Positions 1 through 27,199 are shown, counted from the first letter of the stretch. The stretch is 27,262 nucleotides of DNA from an uncultured cyanobacterium (GCA_963744145.1 CAVUSO010000003.1:1-27262), one strand, 5' to 3'. The notes: a model not told the origin generated them from the letters alone. Numbers and translations are program-made.

Positions 1-1124
1 AAACCTGAAGTATTGACTATTAAGGAGTCAATATTATGCTCTTGGCGATCGCCGATATTATTAGGCTCTAATTGCTTAATAATCGCTTGAATACCTGGAT
101 GATTTGGTTGGCATTTTAATCCCGCTAATGCTGCTTCTTTTGCTTCTACTAAACGTCCTAAATTAAATAGGATTGCCGCCCGGACAAAATCAATTTCTCC
201 CTTTTGTCGGAGTGGCTCTAAAATCGGATCAAGTAATAAATCTAAACTTGATATATGTTGTAGTAACCGGACAGATAGATATTCCCAATATTGAGGATAA
301 TTAGAAATTACCCGCAAAATCCTAGCTGGATAATTAGATAAACTAGCGGTACGTTTAAAAAATGAATTGACATCTTGATAAGCGGGAGTTGATAGTAATT
401 GCATCATATCTTTAAGAACTGCTAATTGATTTTGCAATTCTTTTTCCTGCAATTGATGGTAGGTATCAGATGACATCCTCTGAGCTACTGATAATGCTGG
501 AAAATAGCAAATACCGGTTCTAAAACCAATTACTAAATCTGTAAACCAATCAGAATAACAACCCATTTCCTCTAGAAAACCGCCAATCTCCATTAAAGCC
601 GAACGCTTTCTAATCCCAGTTGGAGTATAGATTGGCATCGCATTAATAGGACGATTGAGAATAATTTCAAGCAACTCATTTGGAGAAAAATAGCAAGATT
701 TATCGCTTAAAGATAACCGATGTTCCCTCTGATTACCTGTCCGAGAATCAAAAGTTATTAAGTCTGAACAGCACAGTCCAGCTTGAGGATACTGTGCTAA
801 TATGTTCATTGACTTTTCATACAATTGAGGTAAAACTTTGTCATCGGCAGCAGCTGAATGTATATAGTTACCTGATGCTAACTTTAGGGCTAAATTGACT
901 GAAAAATTAACTCCTCTATTTTGGGTATTACGCACCAATTTAATGATTGGTTCTTTGGTCGCAAATTTTTCGATAACTTCAACACTTTTATCTGTAGAAG
1001 CATCATCAACAATAATAATTTCCTTTGGTCTAAAACTCTGATTTAATATTGCTTCTAATGCTTCACCAATATACTGAGCATGATTGTAATTAGGCATTAC
1101 TACAGATAAAGTTAGCTGATTCAA
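1..1124 (-). CDS. Family 2 (GT-A) glycosyltransferase with a C-terminal TPR-like helical segment; 3' end runs off the window (not in ORF track)
   Basis: Manual translation of the minus strand gives an open frame from TTG at 1124 (GGGGGA RBS-like element 7 nt upstream; alternative TTG at 1130) to the window edge. It reads (M)NQLTLSVVMPNYNHAQYIGEALEAILNQSFRPKEIIIVDDASTD...SGNYIHSAAADD, matching the GT2 N-terminus and a DxD-like motif. Near the end, FVRAAILFNLGRLVEAKEAALAGLKCQPNHP looks like a TPR. Confidence 0.9.
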   Translation of the reverse strand, partial: MNQLTLSVVMPNYNHAQYIGEALEAILNQSFRPKEIIIVDDASTDKSVEVIEKFATKEPIIKLVRNTQNRGVNFSVNLALKLASGNYIHSAAADDKVLPQLYEKSMNILAQYPQAGLCCSDLITFDSRTGNQREHRLSLSDKSCYFSPNELLEIILNRPINAMPIYTPTGIRKRSALMEIGGFLEEMGCYSDWFTDLVIGFRTGICYFPALSVAQRMSSDTYHQLQEKELQNQLAVLKDMMQLLSTPAYQDVNSFFKRTASLSNYPARILRVISNYPQYWEYLSVRLLQHISSLDLLLDPILEPLRQKGEIDFVRAAILFNLGRLVEAKEAALAGLKCQPNHPGIQAIIKQLEPNNIGDRQEHNIDSLIVNTSG

Positions 1125-1169
1125 GGCCAAATCCCCCTAGTTTAAATTGGTAGGTAAAAATCTCATCTA

Positions 1170-1814
1170 CTAGAAATTATATTCAGTGACATTGTTCGCA
1201 GGTTCTAGATTTTCAGATTCTGGTAAAGCACCTTTCATTAAACCATCCAAGATACAGTGACAAATACACAGATGAGTAATTTCAGCAAATCCATAAGCCA
1301 TTGTAGGAACATAAAAGTTAAGATCGCCTAATTGACGCAGAGGATTGTCTGATTTGAAAGCAGACAGAGTAATGACATGACAACCACTTTGAGCTGCTTG
1401 ACGCGCACCTGCTAGGATATTGGCTGATTTTCCCGAACTACTAATGGCAAAAAGCACATCTCCTGGTTGAGCAAAAGTAGCGATCGGCTTGCTAAAAACT
1501 TGTTCATAGCCAAAATCGTTACTAATACAGGTGAGCAGAGCTCCATCATTAAAGGCGATCGCTGGAAATCCACCATTACGCCAGTAGTCAATTGCTTGAT
1601 GGCTAGCTACAGCCGCACTACCACCATTACCAATAAAAATCACTTTTTTCTGTTGCTGTGTTTGTTTAGATACCAAGCTCGCGGCTTGATCAATCCCTTC
1701 GGCAAAAGACAGAGATATACATTCTCGATTAGTTACTTGAAAATTTTCGCTTAAACCTGCTAATTGGTGAAAATAATCTGTGGCAAAGGGGTGTGATGAT
1801 GGTAATGATTTCAT
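1170..1814 (-). CDS. gmhA: SIS-domain phosphoheptose (sedoheptulose-7-phosphate) isomerase
   Basis: Motifs IGNGGSAAVASH, ISNDFGYEQVF, AISSSGKSANI and EITH. The ORF-track start at 1898 overlaps the NUDIX gene, so ATG at 1814 (MKSLP) is more plausible. Confidence 0.85.
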   Translation of the reverse strand: MKSLPSSHPFATDYFHQLAGLSENFQVTNRECISLSFAEGIDQAASLVSKQTQQQKKVIFIGNGGSAAVASHQAIDYWRNGGFPAIAFNDGALLTCISNDFGYEQVFSKPIATFAQPGDVLFAISSSGKSANILAGARQAAQSGCHVITLSAFKSDNPLRQLGDLNFYVPTMAYGFAEITHLCICHCILDGLMKGALPESENLEPANNVTEYNF

Positions 1815-1852
1815 AGGTAAAAGGTCTAAAAGTGAGCAAGATGACAAAATAA

Positions 1853-2299
1853 TTATTGCTGGAGATAGGTACTCCAAGCCGCAGTTAGGTCGGGACAAGC
1901 GATCGCTGCCACTACCTGCGGTAACATTAACTTAATTTTAGGAATAATAAACAACTGATTTAGTTCCTCAAAAGCAAATAGTCCGAAAGCTTGACCTTCG
2001 GTCAATATTAACTGATCAGTCGCAACTGTTAAAGGAGTAGCAAAAAGATATGTAGTTAACAATTGGTCTGGTTCGTCCCATGTCAGTAGATATTTGATTT
2101 GAGTAGGTGTCCAACTTAGTTCTTCTGTCAGTTCTCTTGCGATCGCTTGGATGGGAGTTTCACCAGCATCAAGGGAACCCCCAAATAGTCCCCAGTAATT
2201 TGGGTAACTAATATCAGGTCTATTATCTCGTAGTTGTAATAACAGACGGGACTGTTGGTAGATAAAAGCGTGGGCAACTTGACGAGGCGTTGAAGCCAT
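1853..2299 (-). CDS. NUDIX hydrolase
   Basis: Nudix box GGSLDAGETPIQAIARELTEEL, preceded by LLLQLRD...YPNYWGLFGG. Confidence 0.9.
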   Translation of the reverse strand: MASTPRQVAHAFIYQQSRLLLQLRDNRPDISYPNYWGLFGGSLDAGETPIQAIARELTEELSWTPTQIKYLLTWDEPDQLLTTYLFATPLTVATDQLILTEGQAFGLFAFEELNQLFIIPKIKLMLPQVVAAIACPDLTAAWSTYLQQ

Positions 2300-2304: not shown

Positions 2305-3300
2305 TTAGGATTTTCCTAGATGCTCAAACCATTCTTTGGTAGCTTCTTGAATTGTATCAGGTGTCCAGACCGGAGATTCTCGCCATAGATCAATATTAGC
2401 TAACATCTGTGCTACTCCATCAGGAAAGGAAACTTGTGGTTGCCAACCTAGTAGGGTTTTAGCTTTGGTAATATCTCCCCAAGTACAGTCTGGTTCTCCC
2501 GGACGTTTGGGTATATGGACAACAGGACCTGCTAATAGTTGTACAAGAGTAAGTACACTTTGAGGTTGACCAGAGCAAATGTTGATAATTTCACCCTTAA
2601 CTTGGGATTGTGCTGCGCTAATAAAAGCTTCCACCACATCACTCACAAAGGTAAAGTCTCGAGTTTGACTACCATCTCCTACCACGGTGAAGGGTTGACC
2701 TGCTAATTTTTGGGCTAAAAATACCCCAAAGACTGCCCCATAAGCTCCAGTAGTCCGACTCCGCGGTCCATAAACATTAAATAAACGTAGAGATACAGCT
2801 GGAAGTTGGTAAACTTTAGCCCAATGACAAACTAACTGTTCCCCCAGATATTTGGTTAAAGCATAAGGATGTTCCGGAGCGCAGTTATAGGTTTCTGGAG
2901 TTGGGTACTGATTGGGGATACCATAACAGGTCGAAGAAGCTGTATAAATAAACCTTTTTACTTGGACATGACGACAAGCTTCTAGGAGAGCAAAGGTACT
3001 ATGAACATTAGCGTGGTAATATTTAGCTGGGTTTTGGATCGATGGGACTAAATCAGCTAAACCTGCTAAATGAAAGATCCAATCGACACCTTCTAAAATA
3101 TTTGGTGTGATTGTGGCTAAATCTTGTTCTAAAAAAGTGAAGGTGTCAGAGGTTTGGGCAACTTGTAGATTGCTCAGACGACCTGTAATCAGACTGTCTA
3201 GACCGATCACATGATGACCAAGAGCCAGTAAGCGATCGCACAGATGGCTCCCAATAAAACCAGCAGCACCAGTTACCAAGCATTGCATAGGAATAGTCAA
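2305..3300 (-). CDS. Extended SDR, NAD-dependent NDP-sugar epimerase/dehydratase (4-epimerase-like)
   Basis: TGAAGFIG, HLAG, ASSTCYG, YALTK, FNVYGPR and GDGSQTRDF. TTG start with GGAG upstream; alternative ATG at 3288. Confidence 0.9.
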   Translation of the reverse strand: MTIPMQCLVTGAAGFIGSHLCDRLLALGHHVIGLDSLITGRLSNLQVAQTSDTFTFLEQDLATITPNILEGVDWIFHLAGLADLVPSIQNPAKYYHANVHSTFALLEACRHVQVKRFIYTASSTCYGIPNQYPTPETYNCAPEHPYALTKYLGEQLVCHWAKVYQLPAVSLRLFNVYGPRSRTTGAYGAVFGVFLAQKLAGQPFTVVGDGSQTRDFTFVSDVVEAFISAAQSQVKGEIINICSGQPQSVLTLVQLLAGPVVHIPKRPGEPDCTWGDITKAKTLLGWQPQVSFPDGVAQMLANIDLWRESPVWTPDTIQEATKEWFEHLGKS

Positions 3301-3330: not shown

Positions 3331-4485
3331 TTATGGTTCTCTGTGATCAAAGGGTGGGCTGAGAATAAAGTTGACTGAATTGCATTCTGGGTATAGTTTT
3401 TTGATTTTTAAACTGATATTTTTCCCATTATCATGGATGAATGGCATCACAATCTTTATTTCCTTGGGTATGTCTGATGGCATTACGATCGGAATATTGT
3501 CTATTTTATTGCCAATTTTTTTCCGATCTTCATCGACAAACAAAATCGGTTTTTTGGTTAATTGTCCATATACCCAACACCCAGCTATGGTTGTACCAAA
3601 AAGACCATAGTTACCATTTTGGGTAGATTTTTCAAAATAGGCAATCGTATTATTTAGCCAATCAAAATATTGATTAGCTCTCCAACTATCTACAGGTTCA
3701 GATGAAGAAGTTTCTAAGTCAATTGCTTTTTTTAACAATAGAGTTAGGCAATTATTAGTCCAATTTTCTCCATCAGTCACTAAGGTAAACTCTTGAGTAT
3801 GACAAAATTTTATTAATCGATTTTTGTGAAAATGAGAGCAATGATCAATCACAGCCATGTCAAAAGGTGTTCGATAAATATCAGGTACTTGGATCAGTAA
3901 AAAACCCTCATCTGTCAGCAAGTCTTTTAATTTTAATAGTAATTCTCCTGGATTAGCTAAATGTTCAAGAACGTGCCACAAAATAATTAAATCAAATTTA
4001 TCCTTGGGTAAATTTTGAAAGTCTCCACAATAAAAATCGACGACATTAGGAATTGTTAAAATCTGATCTTTATAATGATCTCCTAGATCAAAAGCAAATA
4101 AACTCCATTCTGGTAAAAGTTGACTAGCTGACTTCAGCACAGCACCATTACCTGTACCAATATCTAAAAGTTTACCTTTTTTTGCTAATAAAGATCGACA
4201 ACGCTCGATCGCATCATAGGTTCTTGGTCGAGCTGAACCACTTTCCCGAAAAACCAGTTGTTCTTCACCTCCAGAAAGATGATAAATATTATATTCTTTA
4301 TAGATCGCTTCGATCGCCACAAGTTCAGTTTCTGTATGAGCTTTTTGCAAATGATTACACTGTTCACAGAAATAGATTTTTGCTGCAAGAGAACATAGAT
4401 TTGGTTCTGAGGTGACTGAATTAGGCTGAATTCCCAAATTGCCTAATTCTGTGATTTGATTGTTTCCACAAAGATTACATTTCAT
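3331..4485 (-). CDS. Class I SAM-dependent methyltransferase with N-terminal Zn-binding Cys motifs and a C-terminal Rossmann-like domain (divergent sugar C-methyltransferase-like architecture)
   Basis: CNLC...CEQCNH, LLDIGTGNG, FDLIILWHVLEH, and C-terminal YGLFGT...LFVDED.KKIG. Confidence 0.8.
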   Translation of the reverse strand: MKCNLCGNNQITELGNLGIQPNSVTSEPNLCSLAAKIYFCEQCNHLQKAHTETELVAIEAIYKEYNIYHLSGGEEQLVFRESGSARPRTYDAIERCRSLLAKKGKLLDIGTGNGAVLKSASQLLPEWSLFAFDLGDHYKDQILTIPNVVDFYCGDFQNLPKDKFDLIILWHVLEHLANPGELLLKLKDLLTDEGFLLIQVPDIYRTPFDMAVIDHCSHFHKNRLIKFCHTQEFTLVTDGENWTNNCLTLLLKKAIDLETSSSEPVDSWRANQYFDWLNNTIAYFEKSTQNGNYGLFGTTIAGCWVYGQLTKKPILFVDEDRKKIGNKIDNIPIVMPSDIPKEIKIVMPFIHDNGKNISLKIKKLYPECNSVNFILSPPFDHREP

Positions 4486-4499: not shown

Positions 4500-5339
4500 T
4501 TATAACTGATTAGCTAATTGATAAGCATGAGCTGCTTCTGTGACTACAGACCGACTTATTTGTTCATAATAGCCTGGTTTTAAAGATTCGTTTAGAGGAG
4601 CTAGAGCATTTACTACTCTGATATCAGAACTCCAGCGAGAGATGGAACCGCGATTCTCTACAGCACCATGTAATATAGATAAACTAAAAATTAGTGCTTC
4701 ACCTAAATTAAGTGCAATCGGCTCCATCCCCACCGTATAAATAGGATCGATTAACTTAGGAGCATAAAGAAATCCTAATTGATTTTTTATTGATCCTTTG
4801 GTTATATCCGGACTGACAATCTGTGTAATCGGAAAATCGGATTCAGGACGAATATGAGAGCCGGAAAGCATTGAGATCGAACTTTCTAGCGGCACATTAA
4901 CATAGGGAATTAAAACTGATAGTTCAAAAGGTGAATTTCCATAAAAAGTATCGCGATGATATCCAACATTATCTTGGGGTTTATTTGGTCTGGTAATCCG
5001 CAAATGGGGCTTGCTTTGCACATTTAGATCTGGTCCTAATAAAGCTTTGAAAAAATCTATTTGAGCTGTAATAATCTTTTTACCTAATTGCTGTTCCCAA
5101 AAAAATTGACTTAATTGAAATTGCAATTCAGTATGCTGATCATCATCTTCAATTACAGTTTGATATTGCTCTAATGTAATGGTAGAATTTCTAGTTAGCC
5201 GTCGCAATTCTTCTAGCAAAGCATTACGGGTAATATAAACTGGCTCTGGATTCGGTAGTTGCAGCACCATCCATCCATGTTGATAAAAGTGCTGTTCCAG
5301 TTGCTCAAAATTTTTTGGTTTAGTTGTCGTGATTTCCAT
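4500..5339 (-). CDS. 2-oxoglutarate/Fe(II)-dependent dioxygenase, phytanoyl-CoA dioxygenase (PhyH)-like
   Basis: HxD (YHRD), SGSH, distal His (ILHGAVEN) and SRWSSDIR. ATG at 5339 overlaps the upstream stop (TAATG), so it is preferred over TTG at 5345. Confidence 0.8.
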   Translation of the reverse strand: MEITTTKPKNFEQLEQHFYQHGWMVLQLPNPEPVYITRNALLEELRRLTRNSTITLEQYQTVIEDDDQHTELQFQLSQFFWEQQLGKKIITAQIDFFKALLGPDLNVQSKPHLRITRPNKPQDNVGYHRDTFYGNSPFELSVLIPYVNVPLESSISMLSGSHIRPESDFPITQIVSPDITKGSIKNQLGFLYAPKLIDPIYTVGMEPIALNLGEALIFSLSILHGAVENRGSISRWSSDIRVVNALAPLNESLKPGYYEQISRSVVTEAAHAYQLANQL

Positions 5340-6097
5340 TACCAAGAACCTCCATCAATCGGTAATATAGTACCAGTACAAAAGGAAGCTTTTTCTGAAC
5401 ACAAGAAAATAACAAAATCACTAATTTCATCTAGGGTGGCAAATCGCTTAATCGCAATTCTTTGGTCAAGATAGTTTTGGACTCGATCTGGGTTTTCCTG
5501 AGCTACCTGATCCCAATGACTACCTGGAGAACGAATTGCCCCTGGCATAATGGCTGTAACTACAACCCCATCAGGTGCTACTGTACAACCTAAGTTTTTG
5601 GTATAGGCATTGAGAGCAGCTTTGACGGTACAGTAAGCAAGGGCACCACGACTTAAAGTAGCAGCGATCGAAGAAATATGCACTACCCGTCCCCATTTGC
5701 GTTGTTGCATCGAGGGAATTAAATAACGATTTAAGTCAGTAGCAATTTCCAAGTTAAGTCGCCAAACCGAACGCCATTCAGAAACTGAACAAAATGGATC
5801 TCTAATTCCTAATGTACCCCCCAAGTTGTGAATGATAATATCAATCTGTTTACCATGAGACTGGATTGTTTCAACTAACTCTCTAGGAGCATGATCCGGA
5901 ACTAAGTCTTTAACTTGACTCCAATGACCTTTGACTTCACCCCCCATTTCGGCTAACAAGGAGAGCAGATCCGCTTGATTACGAGCAACGACACCAACTT
6001 GGGCTCCTTCTTTGGCTAAACTCAGCGCGATCGCTCTCCCCAATCCACGACTTGCTCCCACCACTAAAGCTGATTTCCCCTCAAGTTCTAGGTGCAT
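5339..6097 (-). CDS. Classical SDR oxidoreductase (FabG-like fold)
   Basis: VGASRGLG, HISS, YCTVK, MPG and C-terminal TGTILPIDGG. Confidence 0.9.
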   Translation of the reverse strand: MHLELEGKSALVVGASRGLGRAIALSLAKEGAQVGVVARNQADLLSLLAEMGGEVKGHWSQVKDLVPDHAPRELVETIQSHGKQIDIIIHNLGGTLGIRDPFCSVSEWRSVWRLNLEIATDLNRYLIPSMQQRKWGRVVHISSIAATLSRGALAYCTVKAALNAYTKNLGCTVAPDGVVVTAIMPGAIRSPGSHWDQVAQENPDRVQNYLDQRIAIKRFATLDEISDFVIFLCSEKASFCTGTILPIDGGSW

Positions 6098-6099: not shown

Positions 6100-7146
6100 T
6101 TATTCTGACTTGGAGTTACAAATTAGCGCCCTACCTACTTTACCTGTTTCTAAATCCTCTAAGGCTTGATTAATTTCTTCCAGGGTATAGCTATGGGTAA
6201 TCAATTTTTCTAATGGTAGCTTTCCTGATAGATAAAGTGATACATATCTAGGAATATCCTGGTCAGGGTTAGTTTCTCCTCCCCAAGTACCAATCACTTT
6301 TTTACCGCGAATTAAATCAAAAGGATCGAGACTAATTTTTTCTCCTACTGGTAAGTTTCCAGCTAGCACCGCTAGTCCCCCAGGTGCCCGAATTGAGGCG
6401 ATCGCAGCTTCCATGGTCTGTTGACGTCCAGCAGCTTCAATGGCATAGTCTACACCTTTACCTCCAGTTAGCTCGTTTAAAACTTGCTGGGTATCCGCAG
6501 TTTTCCCATTGATTGTGTGAGTTGCGCCTAAAGCTTTCGCTTGTGCTAATTTATGGTCAAAAATATCAACGGCAATGATGGTAGTTGCATTCATTAGATT
6601 AGCAGCCAGGACGGCACTTAACCCAATCCCACCTACTCCAAAAATTACCACGCTACTACCGGGACGAATTTGGATGGTATTTAAAACTATCCCAGCTCCT
6701 GTCGGAATGGCACAACCTAATAAAGCTGCTTCTCGCAATGGCATAATTGCGGGAATGGCAGTGAGTCGATTTTCGGAAACTACTGCATATTGTAAAAAGG
6801 TACTGATGGCACCAGAGTTAATGGTCTGGTTTTGTTTTTGGTATTGAGTGGAGGGAATGTCTGCACCTTGTCCTTTAATCCAAGAAAGAACTACGCGATC
6901 GCCATGTTTTACTTTATTTACTCCTGTACCAATTTCTAAAACTATCCCAGCACCTTCATGTCCCATAGTATGGGGTAAATAACGATCTGGTCCTCGTTTT
7001 CCCCTTGCTTCTAACAGTTGACTATGACACACACCACTGTAGACAATTTCTACTAAAACTTGACCAGGTTTGAGTGTAGGTAGGGTCAATTCTTCTAAGC
7101 GTAGAGGTTCGTTGAGCTGATAAAGGACAGCAGCTTTAGTATTCAT
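6100..7146 (-). CDS. Zn-dependent medium-chain dehydrogenase/reductase (alcohol dehydrogenase family)
   Basis: GVCHS, GHEGAG, LLGCAIPTG and FGVGGIG. The structural-Zn Cys cluster is absent. Likely start is ATG at 7146 (MNTKAAVL, ATGA overlap) rather than 7206. Confidence 0.9.
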   Translation of the reverse strand: MNTKAAVLYQLNEPLRLEELTLPTLKPGQVLVEIVYSGVCHSQLLEARGKRGPDRYLPHTMGHEGAGIVLEIGTGVNKVKHGDRVVLSWIKGQGADIPSTQYQKQNQTINSGAISTFLQYAVVSENRLTAIPAIMPLREAALLGCAIPTGAGIVLNTIQIRPGSSVVIFGVGGIGLSAVLAANLMNATTIIAVDIFDHKLAQAKALGATHTINGKTADTQQVLNELTGGKGVDYAIEAAGRQQTMEAAIASIRAPGGLAVLAGNLPVGEKISLDPFDLIRGKKVIGTWGGETNPDQDIPRYVSLYLSGKLPLEKLITHSYTLEEINQALEDLETGKVGRALICNSKSE

Positions 7147-7802
7147 TCGGCAATGAACCAATAGTAATCTCCAGTGTACCCTACTTCGGCAAATAGCTTC
7201 ACCCAATCATCTACGTGCATATAAGTCAAAGCACCTAATTTCCATTTAAACATATTTTCTTTTTGTGCATCTGTGCGCCACGCATCTACTGATATAAAAG
7301 CATGACTACGGCTGACTCGCTGAATTTCCCTAAGTGATTGCTTACATTCTTCTAGCGGTAGATTGTGGATGGTATTAATTGATATTACTAGGTCAAATGA
7401 GTGATCTGGATAAGGTAATTCCTTCGCATTACCAAGTTTCAGTTCGGGTTTTACGTCTTCGATTGCATTGGCGATCGCATACTCGGAAATATCCAATCCA
7501 GCGATCGTCATTTCTGGCATTAATTCTTTGAAATCATGTAACATAAACCCTTTGGCGCAACCTATATCTAGTAAACTCGCGGTTGGAGATAAGTTGTAAT
7601 ATTCCTTAAACCTTTTGACTGTATCTTGCCAGAACCGAGGATGATAATAGTACCCACCGTATCCATATAGACGATCGCCATCAAAATATTCCTGACCAAA
7701 TTTACGTGCGATCGCTATATGATCGTCAGTCATTACTTGTCCCCGTTCTTCTATGGGGCGTTTGCTGCGTGGGTATAAATCCAGCAGGTTTATTTCTGAC
7801 AC
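7143..7802 (-). CDS. Class I SAM-dependent methyltransferase
   Basis: LLDIGCAKG, GLDISEYA and LPYPDHSFDLVISINTIH. Likely start is GTG at 7802 after an AAGGAG RBS; the ORF track starts at 7841. Confidence 0.88.
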   Translation of the reverse strand: MSEINLLDLYPRSKRPIEERGQVMTDDHIAIARKFGQEYFDGDRLYGYGGYYYHPRFWQDTVKRFKEYYNLSPTASLLDIGCAKGFMLHDFKELMPEMTIAGLDISEYAIANAIEDVKPELKLGNAKELPYPDHSFDLVISINTIHNLPLEECKQSLREIQRVSRSHAFISVDAWRTDAQKENMFKWKLGALTYMHVDDWVKLFAEVGYTGDYYWFIAE

Positions 7803-7885
7803 TTTTTCTCTCCTTTCATGCAATGGCGATATGGGAGCCAATTCGATTTTTGGCTGAACAACTGGACGAGCAAAATTAGATGTTT

Positions 7886-18243: not shown

Positions 18244-18249
18244 AGTTGA

Positions 18250-19092: not shown

Positions 19093-19152
19093 AGTAAGAT
19101 CATCATGAATGAGCGAAAGTAACTCGAGTTGCAATCTATTAATCTAGGGCAA

Positions 19153-20130
19153 TTAATAGATTAACTTCTTAGCCAGTTGCTGGTTCACGGTGAACCATGA
19201 AATAGTTTTCTGTAAACCTTCCTTTAAACTGGTTTGAGGTTGCCAACCCAAGATTTGACGGGCAGATTGGTTATTACCAGACATTTCCATAATTTCATCG
19301 GGTCGCATCGGTAACGCTCCTAGTTCTACTGTGACAGGATTATCCATTAATTCTAGGGTCAAATTGACTACATCTCGAATAGCTATCCCTTGTCCAGTAC
19401 AAATATTAAACACCGAACTCAGTGGTAGGGGTTTCTTAGCTGCTAAAATAATAGCTTCAAGCACATCATCAATATACAAATAATCTCGCTGCTGTTTGCC
19501 CTCACTCATAACCATATTGATTTTATTTAAAGCCGATAAAATCGTAGATGGAATCAATCGTCTAGGATGTTCCCAAGGGCCATAAGGCGTGAATAAACGC
19601 AACTCGACTGTTTGGATTTGATACAATTTGGCAAATGTTTGCAGTAGTATACTAGCACAGGCTTTTGAAGCACCAAGCATTGTCCCAGGTAAAAGTAGAT
19701 CATTTTCCGATAATTTCGACCCAGCCCCATAAGCAGCAGCTGAACTGGTAAATATTATTTTGACATCTGGAAATTGCCTTAGAGCTTCTAAAAGGTGAAA
19801 AGTACCGAGAAGGTTTACCTGTAAGTGTGTTTCCGAGCTAATTGTTGGCGGATTGAAAGGTGTGCTAGCAAGATGATAAACGATCTGCGGTTTAATAATT
19901 TGAATCGCTGCTTGAACAGATGCTCCATCGGTGAGATCGGCAGATAGAATCTTGATCTGGTCTTCAATAGTCTGCAAACGAATACGGTTACTATTGGGTC
20001 GCACAAGTAAATACACCTGACATCCATCAGCGACCAGGCGTTGGGCCAAATTAGCGCCGATCGCACCAGTTCCACCTGTTAGCAATACCCTAATCCCCTT
20101 AAGCGTTTCCACCTGATTTTCCTCATTCAA
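19153..20130 (-). CDS. Extended SDR NDP-sugar epimerase/reductase with a non-canonical active site (LxxxK)
   Basis: TGGTGAIG, YHLAS, TSSAAAYG, PGTMLGASK, LRLFTPYGP and QRDYLYIDD. Confidence 0.85.
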   Translation of the reverse strand: MNEENQVETLKGIRVLLTGGTGAIGANLAQRLVADGCQVYLLVRPNSNRIRLQTIEDQIKILSADLTDGASVQAAIQIIKPQIVYHLASTPFNPPTISSETHLQVNLLGTFHLLEALRQFPDVKIIFTSSAAAYGAGSKLSENDLLLPGTMLGASKACASILLQTFAKLYQIQTVELRLFTPYGPWEHPRRLIPSTILSALNKINMVMSEGKQQRDYLYIDDVLEAIILAAKKPLPLSSVFNICTGQGIAIRDVVNLTLELMDNPVTVELGALPMRPDEIMEMSGNNQSARQILGWQPQTSLKEGLQKTISWFTVNQQLAKKLIY

Positions 20131-21139
20131 TCAGCAATAAACGGGACCCTTGAGACTCATAACCAACACTAATCTCAGTCAAATCAGCAAGCGATCGCCG
20201 CACAGATTCCTGATGTTCTGGTGTGACAATAAAAAGCAAGAATCCACCTCCCCCTGCACCACAGAGTTTACCGCCGATCGCACCAGCTGCCATGGCCAAC
20301 TGATACCATTGATCAATCTGGTCATTAGTAATACTACTAGCGAGTTGTCGCTTAAACTGCCAACTATTGTCTAGGACTTTGCCAAATTCTGGCAAGTTAA
20401 GGTCATTTTGCATCAGCAGAGTTCTGATTTCCATTGCGTGTTCTCGCATGGCCAACAAACTATCCATCTTACTGGCAGTATTACGTTGTTGTTCTGATAG
20501 GATTGAGCTGGAGTTCCGTCCCATACCTGTCCAAAACATGAGGATATGATCAAACAACTTGTCCATATCTACTTTTTGTCGATGCTGGGGTTCGATCGAC
20601 ACCCGACCATTAGAAAAAAAGCAAATATAGTTTAAACCACCAAACGCCGCAGCATAATGATCCTGCTTACCCATAGGACGCTTCAATACTTCTATCTCAA
20701 TATGAGCCGCTTCTTCAGCTAATTGACCAGCCGAAACGCGATCGCCCCGTAACCCATGCAGAGCATTCAGCAACCCCACCGCGAAAGAACTGGATGACCC
20801 TAATCCCGATGCCGCCGGAATATCTGCTACTGTGCTGATATAAATTGGTGGTTCAATCTCCAAAAAGCGCAAACATTCCCTGGCGATATCATTTTTGATC
20901 TCGTCTATATTTTTCACCTGCTCAGTCTCAGAATAGTTGAGACGAATCGGTTCGCCAAATAACTCACTGTGACGTTTAACAGTTACATATACATACTTGT
21001 TGATTGCGGTACTGAGAACTGCCCCGTCTTGGCACTCATAAAAGACAGGCAAATCAGTGCCCCCTCCGGCAAAACTAACTCGCAGTGGGGTGCGCGTCAG
21101 AATAATGCCTGCACTAGATTGTTTTACACTGTTAACCAT
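20123..21139 (-). CDS. hddA: GHMP kinase, D-glycero-alpha-D-manno-heptose-7-phosphate kinase-like
   Basis: TPLRVSFAGGGTD, PAASGLGSSS, GKQDHYAAAFGG and GGKLCGAGGGGF. Confidence 0.88.
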   Translation of the reverse strand: MVNSVKQSSAGIILTRTPLRVSFAGGGTDLPVFYECQDGAVLSTAINKYVYVTVKRHSELFGEPIRLNYSETEQVKNIDEIKNDIARECLRFLEIEPPIYISTVADIPAASGLGSSSSFAVGLLNALHGLRGDRVSAGQLAEEAAHIEIEVLKRPMGKQDHYAAAFGGLNYICFFSNGRVSIEPQHRQKVDMDKLFDHILMFWTGMGRNSSSILSEQQRNTASKMDSLLAMREHAMEIRTLLMQNDLNLPEFGKVLDNSWQFKRQLASSITNDQIDQWYQLAMAAGAIGGKLCGAGGGGFLLFIVTPEHQESVRRSLADLTEISVGYESQGSRLLLIE

Positions 21140-21581
21140 TCTTCAGTGACCAATCATAGCCAATTTCGTTATCAAAAGGATGAATGCGAATCATTTCATC
21201 AGGATCATGAGGTTCAGTAGCGCAGTTTGCCAAAATCACCATTTTATCACCGTAAGCTTTATAGCCATTAGCAATTCCAGGCGGAATTTGGACCAAACAG
21301 TAATTATCCTCTCCCAAAAATACCTCTTGCAATTTTCCTTTTGTTGGTGACTTTTCTCTGAGGTCATACATTACTAACTTAGCCCGTCCACAGATCACCG
21401 CATTATTAATAGTCATTGTCTGATGAATATGCCATGCTTTAATGGTTCCAGGCCAAGCACAGGAAAAATAAATCTCACCAAACTGGGTAAAATGCGGGTC
21501 GGTTGCTTTGAGCATGTGCATAATTTTGCCACGTTCGTCTACAATCTGCCGTAGGGGAATAATTTTGACTCCTTCAATCAT
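21132..21581 (-). CDS. Cupin dTDP-4-dehydrorhamnose 3,5-epimerase (RmlC)-family protein
   Basis: IEGVKI...DERG, KAWHIH, DLREKSPT and IPPGIANGY. Confidence 0.85.
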   Translation of the reverse strand: MIEGVKIIPLRQIVDERGKIMHMLKATDPHFTQFGEIYFSCAWPGTIKAWHIHQTMTINNAVICGRAKLVMYDLREKSPTKGKLQEVFLGEDNYCLVQIPPGIANGYKAYGDKMVILANCATEPHDPDEMIRIHPFDNEIGYDWSLKNG

Positions 21582-22627
21582 TGTCCTATCTCTGTGCTAT
21601 TTTGCCAATGCAGTGTACCATCTAGACGTCCCGTATCGAGCAAGTAACGTAACCAATGAAGACGAGTAAAACGACGATCAATGAAATCTGCATGGGTCAA
21701 TTTGATTGACTTAAAAGCTGCGTACAGATCTTTAGCCCCTTCTTGGGCAGTCCACTTGAACTCAAAGTTGGGAAAAACTCGAGCAAACTTACTAAAATCT
21801 GCTTGGTAGGTACGTTGATCAGCACTGGGGGTAGCTAGAACTTCTAATTTACAATCAGGAACGGTTTCGATCACGATTTTGGCCAAATCTAAAATTTGAT
21901 AATTTAAGTGGTTAGCACCGTTATTAAATATTTGGTTATGTATCGCAGTAATTGGTGCTTCTATCACTGTTAAAAATGAACGCACAACATCTTGAACATG
22001 AATAACGGGACGCCAGGGTGTGCCATCTCCATGCAATACTACTTTTTGGGTGGTTACTGCTGCTCCCATTAAGTTGTTCAAGACTGTATCAAATCGCATT
22101 CGTGGTGAAATTCCATAGATCGTGCCATTTCGTAAGAAGGTGGGTGAAAAGTGATCATCAGCTAGTTTGGCGATCGCATATTCACTTTTTACCTTAGATG
22201 CTGCGTATTCTGTTTTCGGATCGAGGGGTGATTCCTCTGTAACTACAGCAGTTTCTGACATCCCATACATAATGCAAGAAGATGAAAACAAAAATCGCTG
22301 TACTCCTGCTTGTTTAGCCAATTCAGCTAGACGTAAGGAAGATTGAAAGTTAATTTCCTCTGTCCAATCTCGATTTAAGTTGCCAATTGGATCGTTACTT
22401 AAAGCTGCTAAATGAACTACTGCATCAACTCCTTCCAAGTCTTCTGGTTGTAAATGACGAATATCCTTATTGATGGTCGGGACATTAACCAAATCTGGCA
22501 CTAGAGTGCATTCATGGAAGTAACCCGTGTCTAAACCAATTACTTCATATCCAGCATTTAAAAATATTGGAGTCATCACCGATCCAATATAACCATTATT
22601 CCCTGTTATTAAAATTCGTTTTGTCAT
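21578..22627 (-). CDS. Extended SDR NDP-sugar epimerase/dehydratase/reductase
   Basis: TGNNGYIG, HLAALSNDP, SSSCIMYG, YAASK, SPRMRFD and DGTPWRP. Confidence 0.9.
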   Translation of the reverse strand: MTKRILITGNNGYIGSVMTPIFLNAGYEVIGLDTGYFHECTLVPDLVNVPTINKDIRHLQPEDLEGVDAVVHLAALSNDPIGNLNRDWTEEINFQSSLRLAELAKQAGVQRFLFSSSCIMYGMSETAVVTEESPLDPKTEYAASKVKSEYAIAKLADDHFSPTFLRNGTIYGISPRMRFDTVLNNLMGAAVTTQKVVLHGDGTPWRPVIHVQDVVRSFLTVIEAPITAIHNQIFNNGANHLNYQILDLAKIVIETVPDCKLEVLATPSADQRTYQADFSKFARVFPNFEFKWTAQEGAKDLYAAFKSIKLTHADFIDRRFTRLHWLRYLLDTGRLDGTLHWQNSTEIGQ

Positions 22628-22763: not shown

Positions 22764-22885
22764 TGGTTCAGATTAGCTCATTTATGTAGTTGTGCCAAGA
22801 GCGCTGAAGCGCAACTACATACCTGGTTCAGATTAGCTCATTTATGTAGTTGTGCCAAGAGCGCTGAAGCGCAACTACATACCTG
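22764..22885. repeat. Perfect 60-bp direct tandem duplication, each unit containing a REP-like inverted repeat
   Basis: The unit TGGTTCAGATTAGCTCATTTATGTAGTTGTGCCAAGAGCGCTGAAGCGCAACTACATACC occurs at 22764-22823 and 22824-22883. Arms TATGTAGTTGTGC (22783-22795) and GCGCAACTACATA (22809-22821) pair with 1 mismatch. There is an inner hairpin GCGCT-GA-AGCGC. Confidence 0.95.
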
Positions 22886-22901: not shown

Positions 22902-24116
22902 TTAAGATTCTAATCTACTATTTCCTATCAATTTTTGGACATAGTCAAGTAAACCTACTTGCTCAGATGCAAACAACCAAGGACATCCAGCAGCTTCAGC
23001 AGCTAACCCATCACGTTCGTCATCACCGATAAAGTATGTATGACTAAGATCTAAGCTAAAGTCACGTTGTGCTTGAAACAACATTCCTGGTTTAGGTTTA
23101 CGACACTCGCATCCTTCATCCCAATTATGGGGACAATAATAAACTGCATGAATATTACCACCTGCTAGCTGAACTTCTGCTTTCATTCTTTGGTGAATCT
23201 CATTTAGTTGTGCTTCTGTCATTGCTCCTCTAGCAATTCCTGGTTGATTAGTCACAACTATGACTCGATATCCAGCTTTATTTAATAAGCGTAAAGCTAT
23301 CTTTACACCAGGTAGCCATTCCCATTCAGCCCAAGATACCACATAATTAGCACGGGGCATTTTTTTATTGATTACGCCATCACGATCTAATAATATTGTG
23401 GGATATCTTGCTAGGAATTCTTCGGTTAAATGCAAGCGTTGATGAGAGCCAATACTATAATAACGATGTTCAGTAATATAAGCTTGTAGCTGTTGTTTTT
23501 CTACCAATTTTGGATAAGCTACAGCCTCAAAGGAAACATTTTCATCTGATAGTAAATCAATGACAGAGTTTTTCAGAATTACAAAGCCAATATCTACCCC
23601 AGACAGATTTGCAGTAGTTCGACTTTTATCATAAACAACAACAGATCCTTGACTATTTACACTGAGATTGTTCTGGGTATATTTATCCGCATTACGATAT
23701 ACTGTAATCTGTGCTAGGGGATCTGAAGCCAGAAATTGTCGCCACATGGCATCAAAACGCATTGGCCAATAGTTATCACAATACATGAGCAGAAAAATAG
23801 GATCTATCAGTGGTTGTGCCAGTTTTAGTCTTTGTCCCGTATCATTTTCAACTGCGGAAACAGAGTATTCAATTGATATACCCCATTTACTACCATTGCC
23901 GAAATAATTTTGAATTACCTCACTCAGATATCCCAATAATAAAAGAATGCGATCGAACCCTTGGTCACGGATCATCTCAATTAGATATTCTAAAAAAGGT
24001 TTACCGTGAAATTCGATCATCGGCTTAGGTTTGGTGTCAGTTAATGGTCGTAAGCGAGTACCTTGACCACCAGCTAAAATTACAGCTTGGGTAGGACGCG
24101 GTAAGGGTGTTAACAA
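22902..24116 (-). CDS. gmhB: Bifunctional sugar-1-phosphate nucleotidyltransferase (HddC-like) fused to HAD-IIIA heptose-1,7-bisphosphate phosphatase (GmhB-like)
   Basis: N-terminal ILAGGQGTRLRP...KPKPM; C-terminal LDRDGVIN, VTNQPG, CPH...CECRKPKPGM and FIGDDERD. TTG start after GAGGA. Confidence 0.9.
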   Translation of the reverse strand: MLTPLPRPTQAVILAGGQGTRLRPLTDTKPKPMIEFHGKPFLEYLIEMIRDQGFDRILLLLGYLSEVIQNYFGNGSKWGISIEYSVSAVENDTGQRLKLAQPLIDPIFLLMYCDNYWPMRFDAMWRQFLASDPLAQITVYRNADKYTQNNLSVNSQGSVVVYDKSRTTANLSGVDIGFVILKNSVIDLLSDENVSFEAVAYPKLVEKQQLQAYITEHRYYSIGSHQRLHLTEEFLARYPTILLDRDGVINKKMPRANYVVSWAEWEWLPGVKIALRLLNKAGYRVIVVTNQPGIARGAMTEAQLNEIHQRMKAEVQLAGGNIHAVYYCPHNWDEGCECRKPKPGMLFQAQRDFSLDLSHTYFIGDDERDGLAAEAAGCPWLFASEQVGLLDYVQKLIGNSRLES

Positions 24117-24154: not shown

Positions 24155-25153
24155 TTAAAGTTTATGAATATACTCTAATGGTTGTTGTTGAATCTCCTGC
24201 CAAAAATTTTCGATCCAATTGACTACACCTACAATACCTTGATCGAGAGAAATTTGTGGTATCCATCCCAATTCAGTCCGAGCTTTAGTAGAATCAATCA
24301 CATAGGCAGCATCTTGGCCTAATCTTTCTGCTACACTGACTGTCGCTTCGGTAAATGAGCAGTTCATGGTATAGCAAATTTTTTGGACTACCTCCCGTAC
24401 TGCATAACCTTGGTCAGGAGAAAGATGATAAATCTCCCCGATTCTACCTTTTTCCACGATCGCTAGTTCACCTTGAGAAATATCCCGAATGTGAATATAG
24501 GATTTTACTGCATGACCACCACCATGGAGTTGAATTACTTTACCTAGTTTCAAGTAAATTACCGATCGCGGAATTATTTTAAATAACTGCTGATAAGCTC
24601 CATAAACATTGGTAGAGCGCACCATTACCACAGGAAACTGGAAATTTTTATAAAAAGTGGATAGCAGCAGATCAGCAGCTGCTTTAGAAGCAGCATAAGG
24701 TGTAGAGGGATTCATCGGTGCAGATTCGGTAATGATTCCTGAGCAGGTTCCATAGACTTCAGGAGAGGAGATATGAACATAACGATGTAAATATTTTTGG
24801 TCTTTGAGGTGATTAATTAACTGTGCTAATGCCACAGTATTAGTCTGGAACCAATGATCTGGATTCACCCAACTAGGTGCTACTTCACTTTGAGCCGCAA
24901 AATTCACTATATATTCAGGAGCAAAGTCATCTAGCACCTGAAGGATCTTAGCCATATCTCGGTTCAGATCCAACTGATGAAATTGAAACTGTGGATGTTG
25001 ATGACGTAGATAAGGTAAAAATAACGGACCTTTTTCTGGAGAGCGACTCATACCCAAGACTTCATTTTGACTGTCTTCTAAAAGTAGGTCAATGAAATCA
25101 CTCCCCGAAAAAGAGTTACTACCAAGAACAGCTATTTTGCGATCAGAAGTCAT
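24155..25153 (-). CDS. NDP-glucose 4,6-dehydratase (RmlB)-like extended SDR with altered motifs
   Basis: LGSNSFSG, VNFAAQSEV, HISSPEVYG, PSTPYAASKAAAD, NVYGAYQ...KIIPR and RLGQDAAY. Confidence 0.85.
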   Translation of the reverse strand: MTSDRKIAVLGSNSFSGSDFIDLLLEDSQNEVLGMSRSPEKGPLFLPYLRHQHPQFQFHQLDLNRDMAKILQVLDDFAPEYIVNFAAQSEVAPSWVNPDHWFQTNTVALAQLINHLKDQKYLHRYVHISSPEVYGTCSGIITESAPMNPSTPYAASKAAADLLLSTFYKNFQFPVVMVRSTNVYGAYQQLFKIIPRSVIYLKLGKVIQLHGGGHAVKSYIHIRDISQGELAIVEKGRIGEIYHLSPDQGYAVREVVQKICYTMNCSFTEATVSVAERLGQDAAYVIDSTKARTELGWIPQISLDQGIVGVVNWIENFWQEIQQQPLEYIHKL

Positions 25154-25165
25154 AAGTGACAGTTG

Positions 25166-26224
25166 CTAAAATGGGCCAGTAAAAGATTTATCTGGAATAT
25201 CCAGTTTAATTGAAGATAGATGCGGCTCTACTGCTTGAGGCGATCGCCCCAGCATTTCACAAATCGCTTGATATATATTAACAGCTCGAGGATAATAAAA
25301 TTGTGCTAGTGCGTGGCTCGTGGGAGTAGGTGCATCGGGTAGGGTAATCCGACTTGGTGGACAACGTAAATCAGCAAATATTTGCTCGCTCACTAGAGCA
25401 ACGATTTCTGCACTAAAACCACAACAAGACCAACTTGTATCGGTAACTAACAAACGACCAGTCTTTTGCACGGAATTTAATATCATCTGAGCATCTAATG
25501 GTCTTAAGCTACGCACATCAACCACTTCAACTTGTATTCCCAATTCGGCTAACCAAGTTGCAGCTCGTAAAGCTTCTAAGGTCATATAAGATGTACTAAC
25601 AATGGTCACATCTTGACCACTACGAGCAATTTTGGCTTCACCCAATGGAATATGGTAACTTTCTGTTGGGACAACACCAGAAATATTATGCAACCAACGA
25701 TGTTCTAAAAAAATTACTGGGTTTTGATCACGAATACTAGCCAGTAATAAGCCCTTAGCATCATAAGCTGTGGTGGGCATAACAACTTTTAATCCTGGGA
25801 TATGAGCAAACCAAGCTTGAAGACTTTGGGAATGTTGTGGACCTTGACCCCAACCACGACCAATGATTAAGCGAATTACTAAAGGAACTGATAATTGACC
25901 ACCAAACATATAGTGCCATTTGGCGGCGTTATTTACCATCTGATCCATTGCCAAAAGGGCAAAGTCTACCCGCTGATGCACTAAAATTGGTCGCATCCCC
26001 ATCAATGCTGAACCAATTGCCATCCCTGTCATACCATTTTCAGCTACGGGCATATCTAAAACTCGGTCAGAGCCAAATTTTTCCCGTAAACCTAAGGTAG
26101 TGCCAAAGATCCCTTTTGGGTCTGGTACACCTTCCCCCATAATATAAACTAAAGGATCTTCAGCCATTGCTTGGGTCAAGGCTTCATTAATTGCTTGAGC
26201 GAAGGTAAGTTGACGTTGGGTCAT
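25166..26224 (-). CDS. Pyruvate/acetoin dehydrogenase E1 beta-like subunit (pair 1)
   Basis: MGEGV, DMPVAENG, GQGPQHSQ, IPGLKVVMP, NPVIFLEHR and VDVRSLRPLD. Confidence 0.92.
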   Translation of the reverse strand: MTQRQLTFAQAINEALTQAMAEDPLVYIMGEGVPDPKGIFGTTLGLREKFGSDRVLDMPVAENGMTGMAIGSALMGMRPILVHQRVDFALLAMDQMVNNAAKWHYMFGGQLSVPLVIRLIIGRGWGQGPQHSQSLQAWFAHIPGLKVVMPTTAYDAKGLLLASIRDQNPVIFLEHRWLHNISGVVPTESYHIPLGEAKIARSGQDVTIVSTSYMTLEALRAATWLAELGIQVEVVDVRSLRPLDAQMILNSVQKTGRLLVTDTSWSCCGFSAEIVALVSEQIFADLRCPPSRITLPDAPTPTSHALAQFYYPRAVNIYQAICEMLGRSPQAVEPHLSSIKLDIPDKSFTGPF

Positions 26225-26233
26225 GGTCCGAAT

Positions 26234-27199
26234 TTAGGCATAAATGTGTTCAAACATAGTTTTTTGATCAGGAAAAGGACTGGTTTTTGCAAAAGTGACC
26301 GCGGTTTGAATTTCTGTTGCGATCGCTTGTTCCATCTCTTCTAAATCGAGAACTGTTAAAATCCCTGTTTCTAACAATTGAGTCTGAGTCCGTTGGATGG
26401 GACAGAGAGCTTGCCATTGTTGAAATTCTGTTTCAGTGCGATAACCAATATTATTGTCATAATTTGGACCACAATGTTCTCTCCAGCGATAGGTTTTAAA
26501 TTCTAAAAATCTAGGTCCTCCCTGATTTTTGGCAAGATTAATCGCGGTACTTGTCAGTTGATAAACTTCTTCTACATTATTACCATCACCTTGGATACTA
26601 GGGATGTTATGTGCTTCAGCTAATCGATAAACTTCACGTCCTGGTGGTTGTCGTTCTGTCAGAGGTGTGTAAACTGAGTAGAGATTATTTTCGCAAATAA
26701 AGACGATCGGCAAGTTTTTCAATTTCGCAAAATTAAGACTTTCGTGAAATACACCTTCTTCTGTGGCACCTTCACCAAAAAAAACTACTACAATTTTACC
26801 CAAATTCTGTCTTGCTGATCCAAAAGCTGCTCCCACTGCGATTGGAATTGTACTAGCTACGATCGGTGTTGAACCGATAAATCCTACATTTAAGTCTACT
26901 AAGTGCATTGAACCACCTTTACCTCGACAGCACCCGGTGACTTTACCATACATTTCTGCCCAAAAAGCTTTTAAATCTCCTCCAGTTGCTAAATAGTGAC
27001 CATGAGCTCGATGTCCGCTAAATACTGCATCTGTTGGATTCAAAGCTGCACATACACCGCTAGCAATTGCTTCTTGACCTATACATAAGTGTACTGGACA
27101 ACGCATTTCTTGCTCTGGGTAAAGTTCGACAATCTTTTCTTCTACCCGACGAATCCGTAACATGGTAAAAAAAAGCTTTTTCAATAATTCTGGTGTCAT
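26234..27199 (-). CDS. Pyruvate/acetoin dehydrogenase E1 alpha-like subunit (pair 1)
   Basis: PVHLCIGQEA, HRAHGHY, GKGGSMH, ThDP motif FGEGATEEG...CENN, and TYRWREHCGP. Confidence 0.92.
   Translation of the reverse strand: MTPELLKKLFFTMLRIRRVEEKIVELYPEQEMRCPVHLCIGQEAIASGVCAALNPTDAVFSGHRAHGHYLATGGDLKAFWAEMYGKVTGCCRGKGGSMHLVDLNVGFIGSTPIVASTIPIAVGAAFGSARQNLGKIVVVFFGEGATEEGVFHESLNFAKLKNLPIVFICENNLYSVYTPLTERQPPGREVYRLAEAHNIPSIQGDGNNVEEVYQLTSTAINLAKNQGGPRFLEFKTYRWREHCGPNYDNNIGYRTETEFQQWQALCPIQRTQTQLLETGILTVLDLEEMEQAIATEIQTAVTFAKTSPFPDQKTMFEHIYA

Follow-up and report, generated by a model that had tools for sequence, protein, structure and literature searches.

Two separately travelling sugar-gene modules form a mosaic island in an uncultured cyanobacterium

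A 27,262-nucleotide stretch of DNA from an uncultured cyanobacterium (GCA_963744145.1, CAVUSO010000003.1:1-27262), referred to as the window, was originally predicted to hold 25 co-oriented genes of one undescribed pathway for an unusual, multiply methylated sugar. The present analysis shows that the window is a mosaic of two widespread modules, A and B, both intact and uncharacterised, and not one exotic pathway. Both modules contain a pair of E1 alpha/beta thiamine diphosphate (ThDP) enzymes, and both probably make carbon-extended heptose derivatives for a surface glycoprotein. The earlier proposal, a surface glycoconjugate built with methylated, carbon-extended nucleotide sugars of an unusual kind, stays the best reading, with its single pathway replaced by two modules that travel separately. 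The window is the entire contig C3 of a four-contig, 7.7 Mb genome. An open reading frame (ORF) scan found 26 long ORFs spanning positions 3 to 27199, all on the minus strand, so that co-orientation was upheld and the gene count was raised by a missed Nudix gene. These genes are tightly packed, with 24 of the 25 junctions shorter than 100 bp or overlapping; the sole exception is a 274-bp gap in which no promoter or terminator pattern was found. The G+C content is flat along the window and near the genome's 39%.

Pfam and NCBIfam scans recovered the families named in the original prediction where it had placed them. They comprised a GmhA-like SIS protein, an HddA-like GHMP kinase, a nucleotidyltransferase-GmhB fusion, two E1-alpha and one clear E1-beta proteins, five methyltransferases, six short-chain dehydrogenases/reductases (SDRs) and one zinc medium-chain dehydrogenase/reductase (MDR), an RmlC-type cupin and a B12-binding radical SAM protein; the numbers of methyltransferases and of SDR/MDR enzymes equalled those predicted. 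Many family matches score under the curated cut-offs and denote family resemblance, not equivalog assignment. The predicted 2-oxoglutarate (2OG) dioxygenase is present as an oxygenase, which is only TIGR04324-like (79 bits versus a cut-off of 150). Only two of the three proposed tetratricopeptide repeat (TPR) glycosyltransferases have TPR matches within the window, the third (3-1130) being cut at the contig end. As predicted, the window has no exporter and no non-ribosomal peptide or polyketide synthase gene, nor an aglycone or transporter gene; the genome has Wzx and Wzt_C genes elsewhere. No characterised cluster with the window's gene order was found, which agrees with the earlier view that this is not a recognised pathway. 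A literature search, mostly without subscription papers, returned no paper describing module A or module B; a survey of about 120 alpha-KADH2 clusters, cited in PMC12247030, may list such loci.

The combination is not particular to this cyanobacterium: both modules recur in other genomes, and the cassettes are common in uncultured bacteria. Module B occupies positions 13450-24116. A profile search of GTDB genomes with its divergent E1-beta (E1 beta 2) gave 31 loci, and genes were counted at the 24 loci whose sequence upstream of this E1-beta extends for 8.7 kb or more, seven short loci being dropped and the per-gene identity floors being of our choosing. E1 alpha 2 was present at all 24 loci, SDR2 at 22, HddA at 20, HddC at 18, CmcI at 17, the C-methyltransferase at 17 (distant matches of 30-34% included) and SDR4 at 16, followed by the cupin (12), SDR3 (9), GmhA (7) and radical SAM (2). 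Each of the module-A markers SDR5, MDR, MT11 and reversed HldE was found at one of these loci. The window's module-B gene order is retained in Acidobacteriota and Omnitrophota loci, and the cupin is 73-81% identical to most module-B orthologues. Other hosts include Nitrospirota, Verrucomicrobiota, Gemmatimonadota, Pelagibacteraceae and one Prochlorococcus cell. The divergent E1-beta was absent from all 400 other genomes sampled from the window's phylum and from the viral contigs searched for phage or virus carriage. One related cassette, HddA-E1-DegT-SDR-GmhA on Solidesulfovibrio plasmid pDMC1 (L065), includes lhgO, which could recycle 2-hydroxyglutarate from Cj1427-type dehydrogenases.

Module A was counted in 22 wide-flank loci picked by SDR5 or E1 pair 1, on stretches of 11-60 kb that may miss genes; some rows are close kin, and the counts omit G120, two plasmid loci, L070-L072 and six of the ten genomes from the P0339 search described below. 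Reversed HldE, SDR0 and SDR5 were each present in 20 loci, MT11 in 18, GmhA in 15 and the MDR in 14. An E1 pair was found in 11 loci and a split transketolase in 11, with both in one; a ThDP C2-transfer enzyme is therefore a near-fixed part of module A. The radical SAM gene was found in none of the 22 loci. SDR5 occurred in 6 of 300 other genomes of the window's order and in 7 of 401 genomes of a class sample centred on an alphaproteobacterium, and plasmid and phage collections gave no SDR5 match at the limits used. In one genome (G154) module A is contiguous, with SDR1, GmhA, reversed HldE, the E1 pair, SDR5, MT11, MDR, SDRc and a TIGR04372-like gene; this E1-type module (64-74% identity for four genes) adjoins flagellin and FliD genes. 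In G1339 and G1409, module A adjoins GT41. At L060-L061 (G262) the module-A E1 alpha and beta are fused in one 685-aa ORF. Since module-A genes flank module B in the window and are contiguous elsewhere, the window represents module B inserted into module A. The transferases, radical SAM enzyme, oxygenase, TylF and Methyltransf_23 (MT23) proteins are local additions, and the window's GmhA would serve both modules.

Both window ends fit chromosomal contig C1, and a plasmid origin of the contig was rejected. The right end is the tail of the SDR0 gene, whose body ends at C1:5029602, and further upstream on C1 lies a reversed-order HldE (cytidylyltransferase then PfkB). At the left end the match to C1 is at 5051215, and from there the open GT2 frame runs on toward a GT41 (O-GlcNAc-transferase-like) domain with a frameshifted stretch between. 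Divergent from the island, C1:5024134-5025735 encodes a 533-aa Gly-rich RTX-repeat protein (PF00353; 21% Ser+Thr). The slot in the assembly (C1:5029603-5051214) holds a different, frameshift-rich cassette that is also present as contig C4 (98.4% identical). This C4-type cassette contains split transketolase, HAD, phosphotransferase, radical SAM and FkbM genes and a TIGR04323/04324-like pair, together with its own copies of SDR1, Nudix, GmhA, TIGR04372 and GT2, 55-90% identical to those of the window. SDR1 is 80-87% identical to the copies in C1/C4, G328, G107 and G1007. Two genomes of the same order (G328 and G107) keep the frame, namely reversed HldE and SDR0 on one side and SDR1, Nudix, GmhA and TIGR04372 on the other, at about 80% identity (Nudix 61%), and differ in the middle genes; the slot is therefore a variable island. 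At the GT41 junction the C1 consensus has 300 bp of window-like sequence (91-93%), then C4-like sequence, and the SDR0 end is duplicated, which points to a mis-join of two alleles or of two islands. C3 and C4 may be alleles from strains living together or two islands on a single chromosome. Among sequencing runs, one DNA run matched (X1, soil, share 0.52), which may be the source sample, and no matching RNA run was listed. Contigs of X1 covered the upstream flank within C1 5020000-5034000 near-identically and included a second SDR0 version; the C4-type part of this interval was covered only patchily, and the uncovered stretches prove nothing.

In a quick tree (supported by SH-aLRT only; five rows, E1 alpha 2 among them, deviate in composition), both E1-alphas fell outside the PdhA clade in two separate clades, E1 alpha 1 with 17 rows (SH-aLRT 98) and E1 alpha 2 with 29 rows (SH-aLRT 100). 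Two Streptomyces plasmid E1 pairs (role unknown) lay outside both clades. A recent duplication of one pair was rejected on the basis of 32% identity and the separate clades. E1 beta 2 had no Pfam match; a profile search (1e-15 to 1um9) and its predicted fold (pLDDT 83.6; TM 0.69-0.75 to E1-beta chains) identified it as an E1-beta. Its family gave 830 matches, and among 120 listed members the QHSQ histidine site reads PQSS, SQSS or PQSN in 109 and PHSS in 11. The titles of PDB entries 1ols and 1olx tie this GxQHSQ His to reductive acylation. The pairs differ from a housekeeping pyruvate dehydrogenase E1, as both alphas lie outside PdhA and beta 2 is without the His, though beta 1 keeps it. No E2 is encoded in the cluster, and the single E2 in the genome is at C1 2.59 Mb, 2.4 Mb from the slot. 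Each E1 pair is accompanied by a predicted keto-sugar-forming SDR, SDR4 in module B and SDR5 in module A.

Such E2-less E1 alpha/beta pairs add C2 branches to keto sugars in antibiotic pathways, and the available passages of PMC12247030 list these alpha-KADH2 branching enzymes for aldgamycin, kosinostatin, kibdelomycin, paulomycin and avilamycin. In surface glycans, branching is performed by YerE, ErwE and MMAR_2332 (PMC9306805). The window resembles these systems in having stand-alone ThDP enzymes beside keto-sugar-forming SDRs, reductases and methyltransferases, and its pairs share the heterotetrameric E1 alpha/beta fold, ThDP motif and catalytic Glu of alpha-KADH2. The known E1-type enzymes act on deoxy-keto sugars of actinomycete antibiotics, whereas the window pairs accompany heptose activation; known surface-glycan branching uses single-chain YerE-like enzymes, whereas the window uses E1 pairs, pair 2 without the beta-His.

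The likeness to actinomycete antibiotic sugars raised in the original prediction holds in part, the closest anchors being equally bacterial surface-sugar loci, namely the bradyrhizose cluster and the Campylobacter jejuni heptose and Coxiella virenose loci. Bradyrhizose is a ten-carbon bicyclic, inositol-fused sugar (passages of PMC9912281 and PMC9042403). In photosynthetic Bradyrhizobium, an insertion in gdh (BRAO285v1_100023), part of a conserved 11-gene cluster, abolishes the bradyrhizose O-antigen; the accessible text of that work (Busset et al. 2016, PMC4743980) gives genetics only and no pathway, and polar effects are not excluded. No described bradyrhizose pathway was found in the literature searched. 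The peptides encoded by the two gdh primers published in that text both occur unchanged in Bradyrhizobium protein P0339. As P0339 and SDR5 share 42% identity over 332 aa, gdh is assigned to the SDR5 family. In G446 the primers have sites, with 2 and 4 mismatches, at a distance of 381 bp within the gene of the SDR5 family; the 2.8 Mb scanned contained no second pair of this kind, and an exact gdh primer had 0 matches in metagenome contigs. A P0339 query matched 10 of 401 genomes of one family. Among the genomes fetched, G1122 is the closest relative (82% to P0339) and carries an eleven-gene module-A cluster followed by GT2, with reversed HldE, nucleotidyltransferase, SDR0, GmhA, SDR5, split transketolase, MDR, HAD, phosphotransferase and MT11 genes. 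As a proxy for the bradyrhizose locus, it has the module-A core of reversed HldE, SDR0, GmhA, SDR5, MDR, MT11 and a ThDP enzyme; unlike this proxy, the window lies beside TPR/GT41 transferases.

For module B, the nearest characterised system is the C. jejuni capsular GDP-heptose pathway of GmhA, HddA, GmhB, HddC, Cj1427, Cj1430 and Cj1428, in which Cj1427 is the GDP-heptose C4-dehydrogenase (passages of PMC10680097). Module B has the four activation genes, each under the NCBIfam cut-off, a Cj1427-like SDR and a cupin epimerase; it differs in adding an E1 pair, a 3-C-methyltransferase, CmcI and a Tyr-less SDR, and no capsule export genes are linked to the window. The structure matched by SDR4, PDB 6vo6, is the one we take to be Cj1427. 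The Coxiella burnetii virenose region (cbu0674-cbu0691) contains GmhA, two SDRs, a reversed-order HldE of unknown role and a sugar 3-C-methyltransferase, as described in passages of PMC5843353 and PMC3539893, and reversed-HldE-type heptose activation is also required for virenose (parts of PMC5843353, PMC13252051, PMC13552124 and PMC3539893). Its likeness to modules A and B is by gene content as described, and its product is a 3-C-methyl hexose in O-antigen. E1 pairs are presumably present in that region as well, an assumption of ours that the passages of PMC5843353 and PMC3539893 do not confirm. By analogy, the window may work like alpha-KADH2- or YerE-type branching grafted onto C. jejuni-type (module B) or reversed-HldE-type (module A) heptose activation.

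Based on these comparisons, each module would activate a heptose derived from sedoheptulose-7-phosphate, oxidise it to a 4-keto sugar and add a pyruvate-derived C2 unit by its own E1 pair. In module B, GmhA, HddA, GmhB and HddC would yield GDP-alpha-heptose, SDR4 would oxidise C4 and the cupin, which is weakly similar to heptose epimerases, would epimerise C3/C5. The 3-C-methyltransferase and E1 pair 2 would then introduce the methyl branch and the acetyl branch, either together on a single sugar or as two products of the same ketone, after which SDR2 would reduce the new ketone and CmcI and TylF would add O-methyls; no clear C4-reductase was found among the module-B enzymes. SDR3 lacks the catalytic Tyr, as do 9 of the 10 homologues found; it and these nine orthologues accompany the cupin and a close C-methyltransferase, and SDR3 is possibly a non-redox or regulatory partner. 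In module A, GmhA and the chromosomal reversed HldE would produce an NDP-beta-heptose, SDR5, in which the T-D-E motif reads S-P-E and so retains its Glu, would form a 6-deoxy-4-ulose and the zinc dehydrogenase would oxidise C7 to the aldehyde. E1 pair 1 would add C2 at C4 or C7, the remaining carbonyl could close a six-membered carbocycle by aldol reaction, MT11 would methylate and an SDR would reduce. MT11 and SDR2 have no close solved relative in the PDB. The full name of bradyrhizose is 4,9-cyclo-6-deoxy-8-C-methyl-nonose. A heptose plus C2 plus methyl, 6-deoxy and with a ring from C4 through C7, fits the 4,6-dehydratase, ThDP enzyme, C7 dehydrogenase and methyltransferase of the module-A core. 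The transketolase version, with a hydroxylated C2, would lead to bradyrhizose by carbon count (7+2+1), and the E1 version to an open-chain nonose or a deoxy analogue. Since it is the E1 version that the window carries, the window's product would differ, most simply by one oxygen fewer, and may not be cyclic; a bradyrhizose-like product of module A is thus possible. The outcome would be two different methylated higher-carbon sugars moved to a cell-surface protein by the TPR glycosyltransferases. We infer all of these reactions, products and the acceptor from gene content, modularity, clades, motif states and the SDR5-gdh link, which were observed directly.

The TIGR04372 domain (5,756 family representatives; no paper on the family found in the literature searched) was modelled at pLDDT 96.4 as a predicted GT-B fold, whose best Foldseek matches were TibC and GT9 heptosyltransferases (E 3e-6 to 3e-5, TM 0.38-0.49, 11-16% identity). 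The top matches have TM 0.38-0.45, with GT9 equally near. This predicted likeness to heptosyltransferases is real but distant, and an alignment profile of the family against the PDB matched TPRs only. TibC and the related AAH are characterised by an iron-binding motif, a dodecamer and an autotransporter acceptor; the window protein is TPR-fused, and its TIGR04372 domain may share the GT-B heptosyltransferase fold. A protein acceptor is favoured because the island has no exporter, its last gene runs toward GT41, an RTX gene is its neighbour, flagellin/FliD and GT41 genes adjoin module A in G154 and in G1339/G1409, and TibC is the best fold match of the TIGR04372 domain. The RTX-repeat protein is a candidate acceptor of the oscillin/SwmA kind, these being glycosylated RTX surface proteins of cyanobacteria (passages of PMC3034196). 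The same sugar chemistry could instead serve an LPS O-antigen or another cytoplasm-built polysaccharide with export machinery encoded elsewhere, which we consider possible but rather unlikely. Bradyrhizose is itself an O-antigen sugar in the accessible text of PMC4743980, the Coxiella region with GmhA, two SDRs and reversed HldE serves O-antigen in the passages cited, the TIGR04372 model resembles WaaF/WaaC too, and the genome has three Wzx genes (5.89, 6.53 and 7.15 Mb) and one Wzt_C gene (3.80 Mb, about 9 kb from a GT41 match). The nearest Wzx is 0.8 Mb and Wzt_C 1.2 Mb from the slot, no exporter match being found within 0.8 Mb, and the flagellin and GT41 neighbours in other genomes also speak against a polysaccharide. 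Moreover, TPR-fused soluble transferases are typical of protein-glycosylation islands.

Two further explanations were weighed. The E1 pairs might work earlier, on sugar phosphates, yielding a special donor or a ketose phosphate of eight or nine carbons (C8/C9), which GmhA, HddA and HldE then activate. An analogue exists in the lincomycin octose route, where a transaldolase acts early on sugar phosphates; in module A an E1 pair and a transketolase can replace each other, and both kinds of enzyme normally use aldehyde acceptors, loci of the transketolase type also carry HAD and phosphotransferase, and the active-site loop of E1 beta 2 is altered. We nevertheless regard this as improbable, as an acetyl group on an aldose phosphate would give a 1-deoxy-ketose that GmhA cannot isomerise, and a 4-ketone-forming SDR accompanies both modules. 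It is very improbable that all genes belong to a single long route ending in one secreted glycoside or small molecule, or that the E1 pairs merely supply acetyl-CoA with the housekeeping E2. The co-orientation and tight coupling of all genes and the His that E1 beta 1 retains for reductive acylation would suit such readings; modules A and B, on the contrary, almost never co-occur elsewhere, the slot is occupied by other gene sets in relatives, the window has no aglycone, synthase or transporter gene, and E1 beta 2 is without this His.

Several observations weigh against the preferred assignment of carbon-extended heptoses to a surface glycoprotein. Heptose specificity rests on matches under curated cut-offs, and SDR0 (C4-dehydrogenase-like) and SDR5 (4,6-dehydratase-like) are redundant in module A, as both look able to form the 4-ketone. 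The characterised E1-type branching enzymes are from antibiotic pathways, and the window pairs are not placed among them. An E1 pair occurs without SDR5, MDR and MT11 in G010 and Azospirillum oryzae, and contig C4 has the transketolase without SDR5 and MDR. Regarding bradyrhizose, the identity between SDR5 and the Bradyrhizobium protein is as low as 42%, the locus compared, that of G1122, stands proxy for the Bradyrhizobium one, and its split transketolase, HAD and phosphotransferase are absent from the window, which has the E1 pair instead. As to the acceptor, bradyrhizose belongs to O-antigen, ABC-exporter-like genes adjoin module A in G446 and G1064, no RTX gene was seen beside the island in G328 or G107, and LPS heptosyltransferases are roughly as similar to the TIGR04372 model as TibC is (TM 0.35-0.49). 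A fuller version of the preferred assignment is put forward as a doubtful one: that module A is an E1-type sister of the bradyrhizose pathway making an inositol-fused bicyclic heptose-derived sugar through ThDP-dependent C2 transfer, oxidation at C7 and closure of the ring, that module B makes a second sugar, a C-acetyl, C-methyl heptose via a new His-less E1 family, that TPR-fused TibC-like transferases put both on a cyanobacterial surface protein, and that strains swap E1 and transketolase cassettes at the slot, changing their surface sugar.

The features of the window are collected in Table 1. At the left border of module B lies an exact 60-bp tandem repeat with a related copy at C1 262.7 kb. 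In the interval between reversed HldE and SDR0, C1:5027946-5028641 encodes a nucleotidyltransferase/antitoxin-like protein, and G328, G107 and L069 have a GmhB-like gene there (by eye). Contig C2 (19 kb), with an ATPase, FHA proteins, Ser/Thr kinases and a caspase-like gene, is unrelated to the window (by eye).

Table 1 Features of the window, listed from its right to its left end.
Feature	Position	Strand	Remarks
SDR0 tail, last 12 codons and stop (module A)	27223..27262	-	homologous to C1 SDR C-terminus; rest on C1 up to 5029602
E1 alpha 1 (module A)	26234..27199	-	PF00676 2e-66; ThDP motif GEG...N intact
E1 beta 1 (module A)	25166..26224	-	PF02779/PF02780; GPQHSQ histidine kept
SDR5, NDP-sugar 4,6-dehydratase-like (module A)	24155..25153	-	PDB dTDP-glucose 4,6-dehydratases 2e-47; gdh family
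HddC-like nucleotidyltransferase-GmhB phosphatase fusion (module B)	22902..24116	-	PF00483; NF006506 171.5 bits vs cut-off 178
60-bp tandem repeat, two exact copies	22764..22885	.	within the only long intergenic gap
SDR4, Cj1427-like heptose C4-dehydrogenase candidate (module B)	21578..22627	-	PDB 6vo6, 6e-35
RmlC-type cupin epimerase (module B)	21132..21581	-	PF00908; PDB 3ejk 8e-33
HddA-like heptose-7-phosphate 1-kinase (module B)	20123..21139	-	NF049969 7e-51, under cut-off
SDR3, atypical SDR without catalytic Tyr (module B)	19153..20130	-	no YxxxK
TylF-family O-methyltransferase (local add-on)	18250..19134	-	PF05711; 1/24 module-B loci
Sugar 3-C-methyltransferase (module B)	17023..18243	-	PF08421/PF08484; mycarose 3-C-methyltransferase 4rv9, 2e-96
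CmcI/rhamnosyl-O-methyltransferase family protein (module B)	16217..16990	-	PF04989 6e-69
SDR2, constant neighbour of E1 pair 2 (module B)	15342..16220	-	22/24 loci
E1 alpha 2 (module B)	14423..15331	-	PF00676 1e-26; ThDP motif GDG...N intact
E1 beta 2, divergent (module B; likely start 14430)	13450..14454	-	catalytic Glu kept; Ser replaces GxQHSQ His
TIGR04440 GT2-like glycosyltransferase, C-terminal TPRs	12043..13425	-	172 bits vs cut-off 70
TPR + TIGR04372 glycosyltransferase	9855..12053	-	231 bits vs cut-off 45
B12-binding radical SAM enzyme (accessory)	7886..9760	-	PF04055/PF02310; CxxxCxxC
Class I methyltransferase MT11 (module A)	7143..7841	-	PF08241
Zinc alcohol dehydrogenase, MDR (module A)	6100..7206	-	PF08240/PF00107
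SDRc, classical SDR ketoreductase (module A accessory)	5339..6097	-	PF13561; 3/22 module-A loci
TIGR04324-like 2OG-Fe(II) oxygenase (accessory)	4500..5345	-	4e-22, under cut-off; HxD...H motif
Methyltransf_23 methyltransferase (accessory)	3331..4485	-	Pfam
SDR1, GalE-like epimerase/dehydrogenase (module A)	2305..3300	-	Pfam/NCBIfam
Nudix hydrolase	1853..2299	-	PF00293
GmhA-like sedoheptulose-7-phosphate isomerase (likely start near 1814)	1170..1898	-	NF001628/TIGR00441, under cut-off
GT2 domain, open at contig end	3..1130	-	continues on C1 from 5051215

If the proposed route is correct, it would set out gene by gene how carbocyclic higher-carbon sugars are made, among them bradyrhizose, on which the literature found offers genetics and no pathway, and the exchange of an E1 pair for a transketolase would be predicted to change the product by one oxygen. 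C-C bond formation of the E1 type would then extend from antibiotic hexoses to surface heptoses, and the widespread E1 family without the His would supply a candidate carboligase that accepts ketones. The uncharacterised TIGR04372 family would likewise gain a heptosyltransferase-like role.

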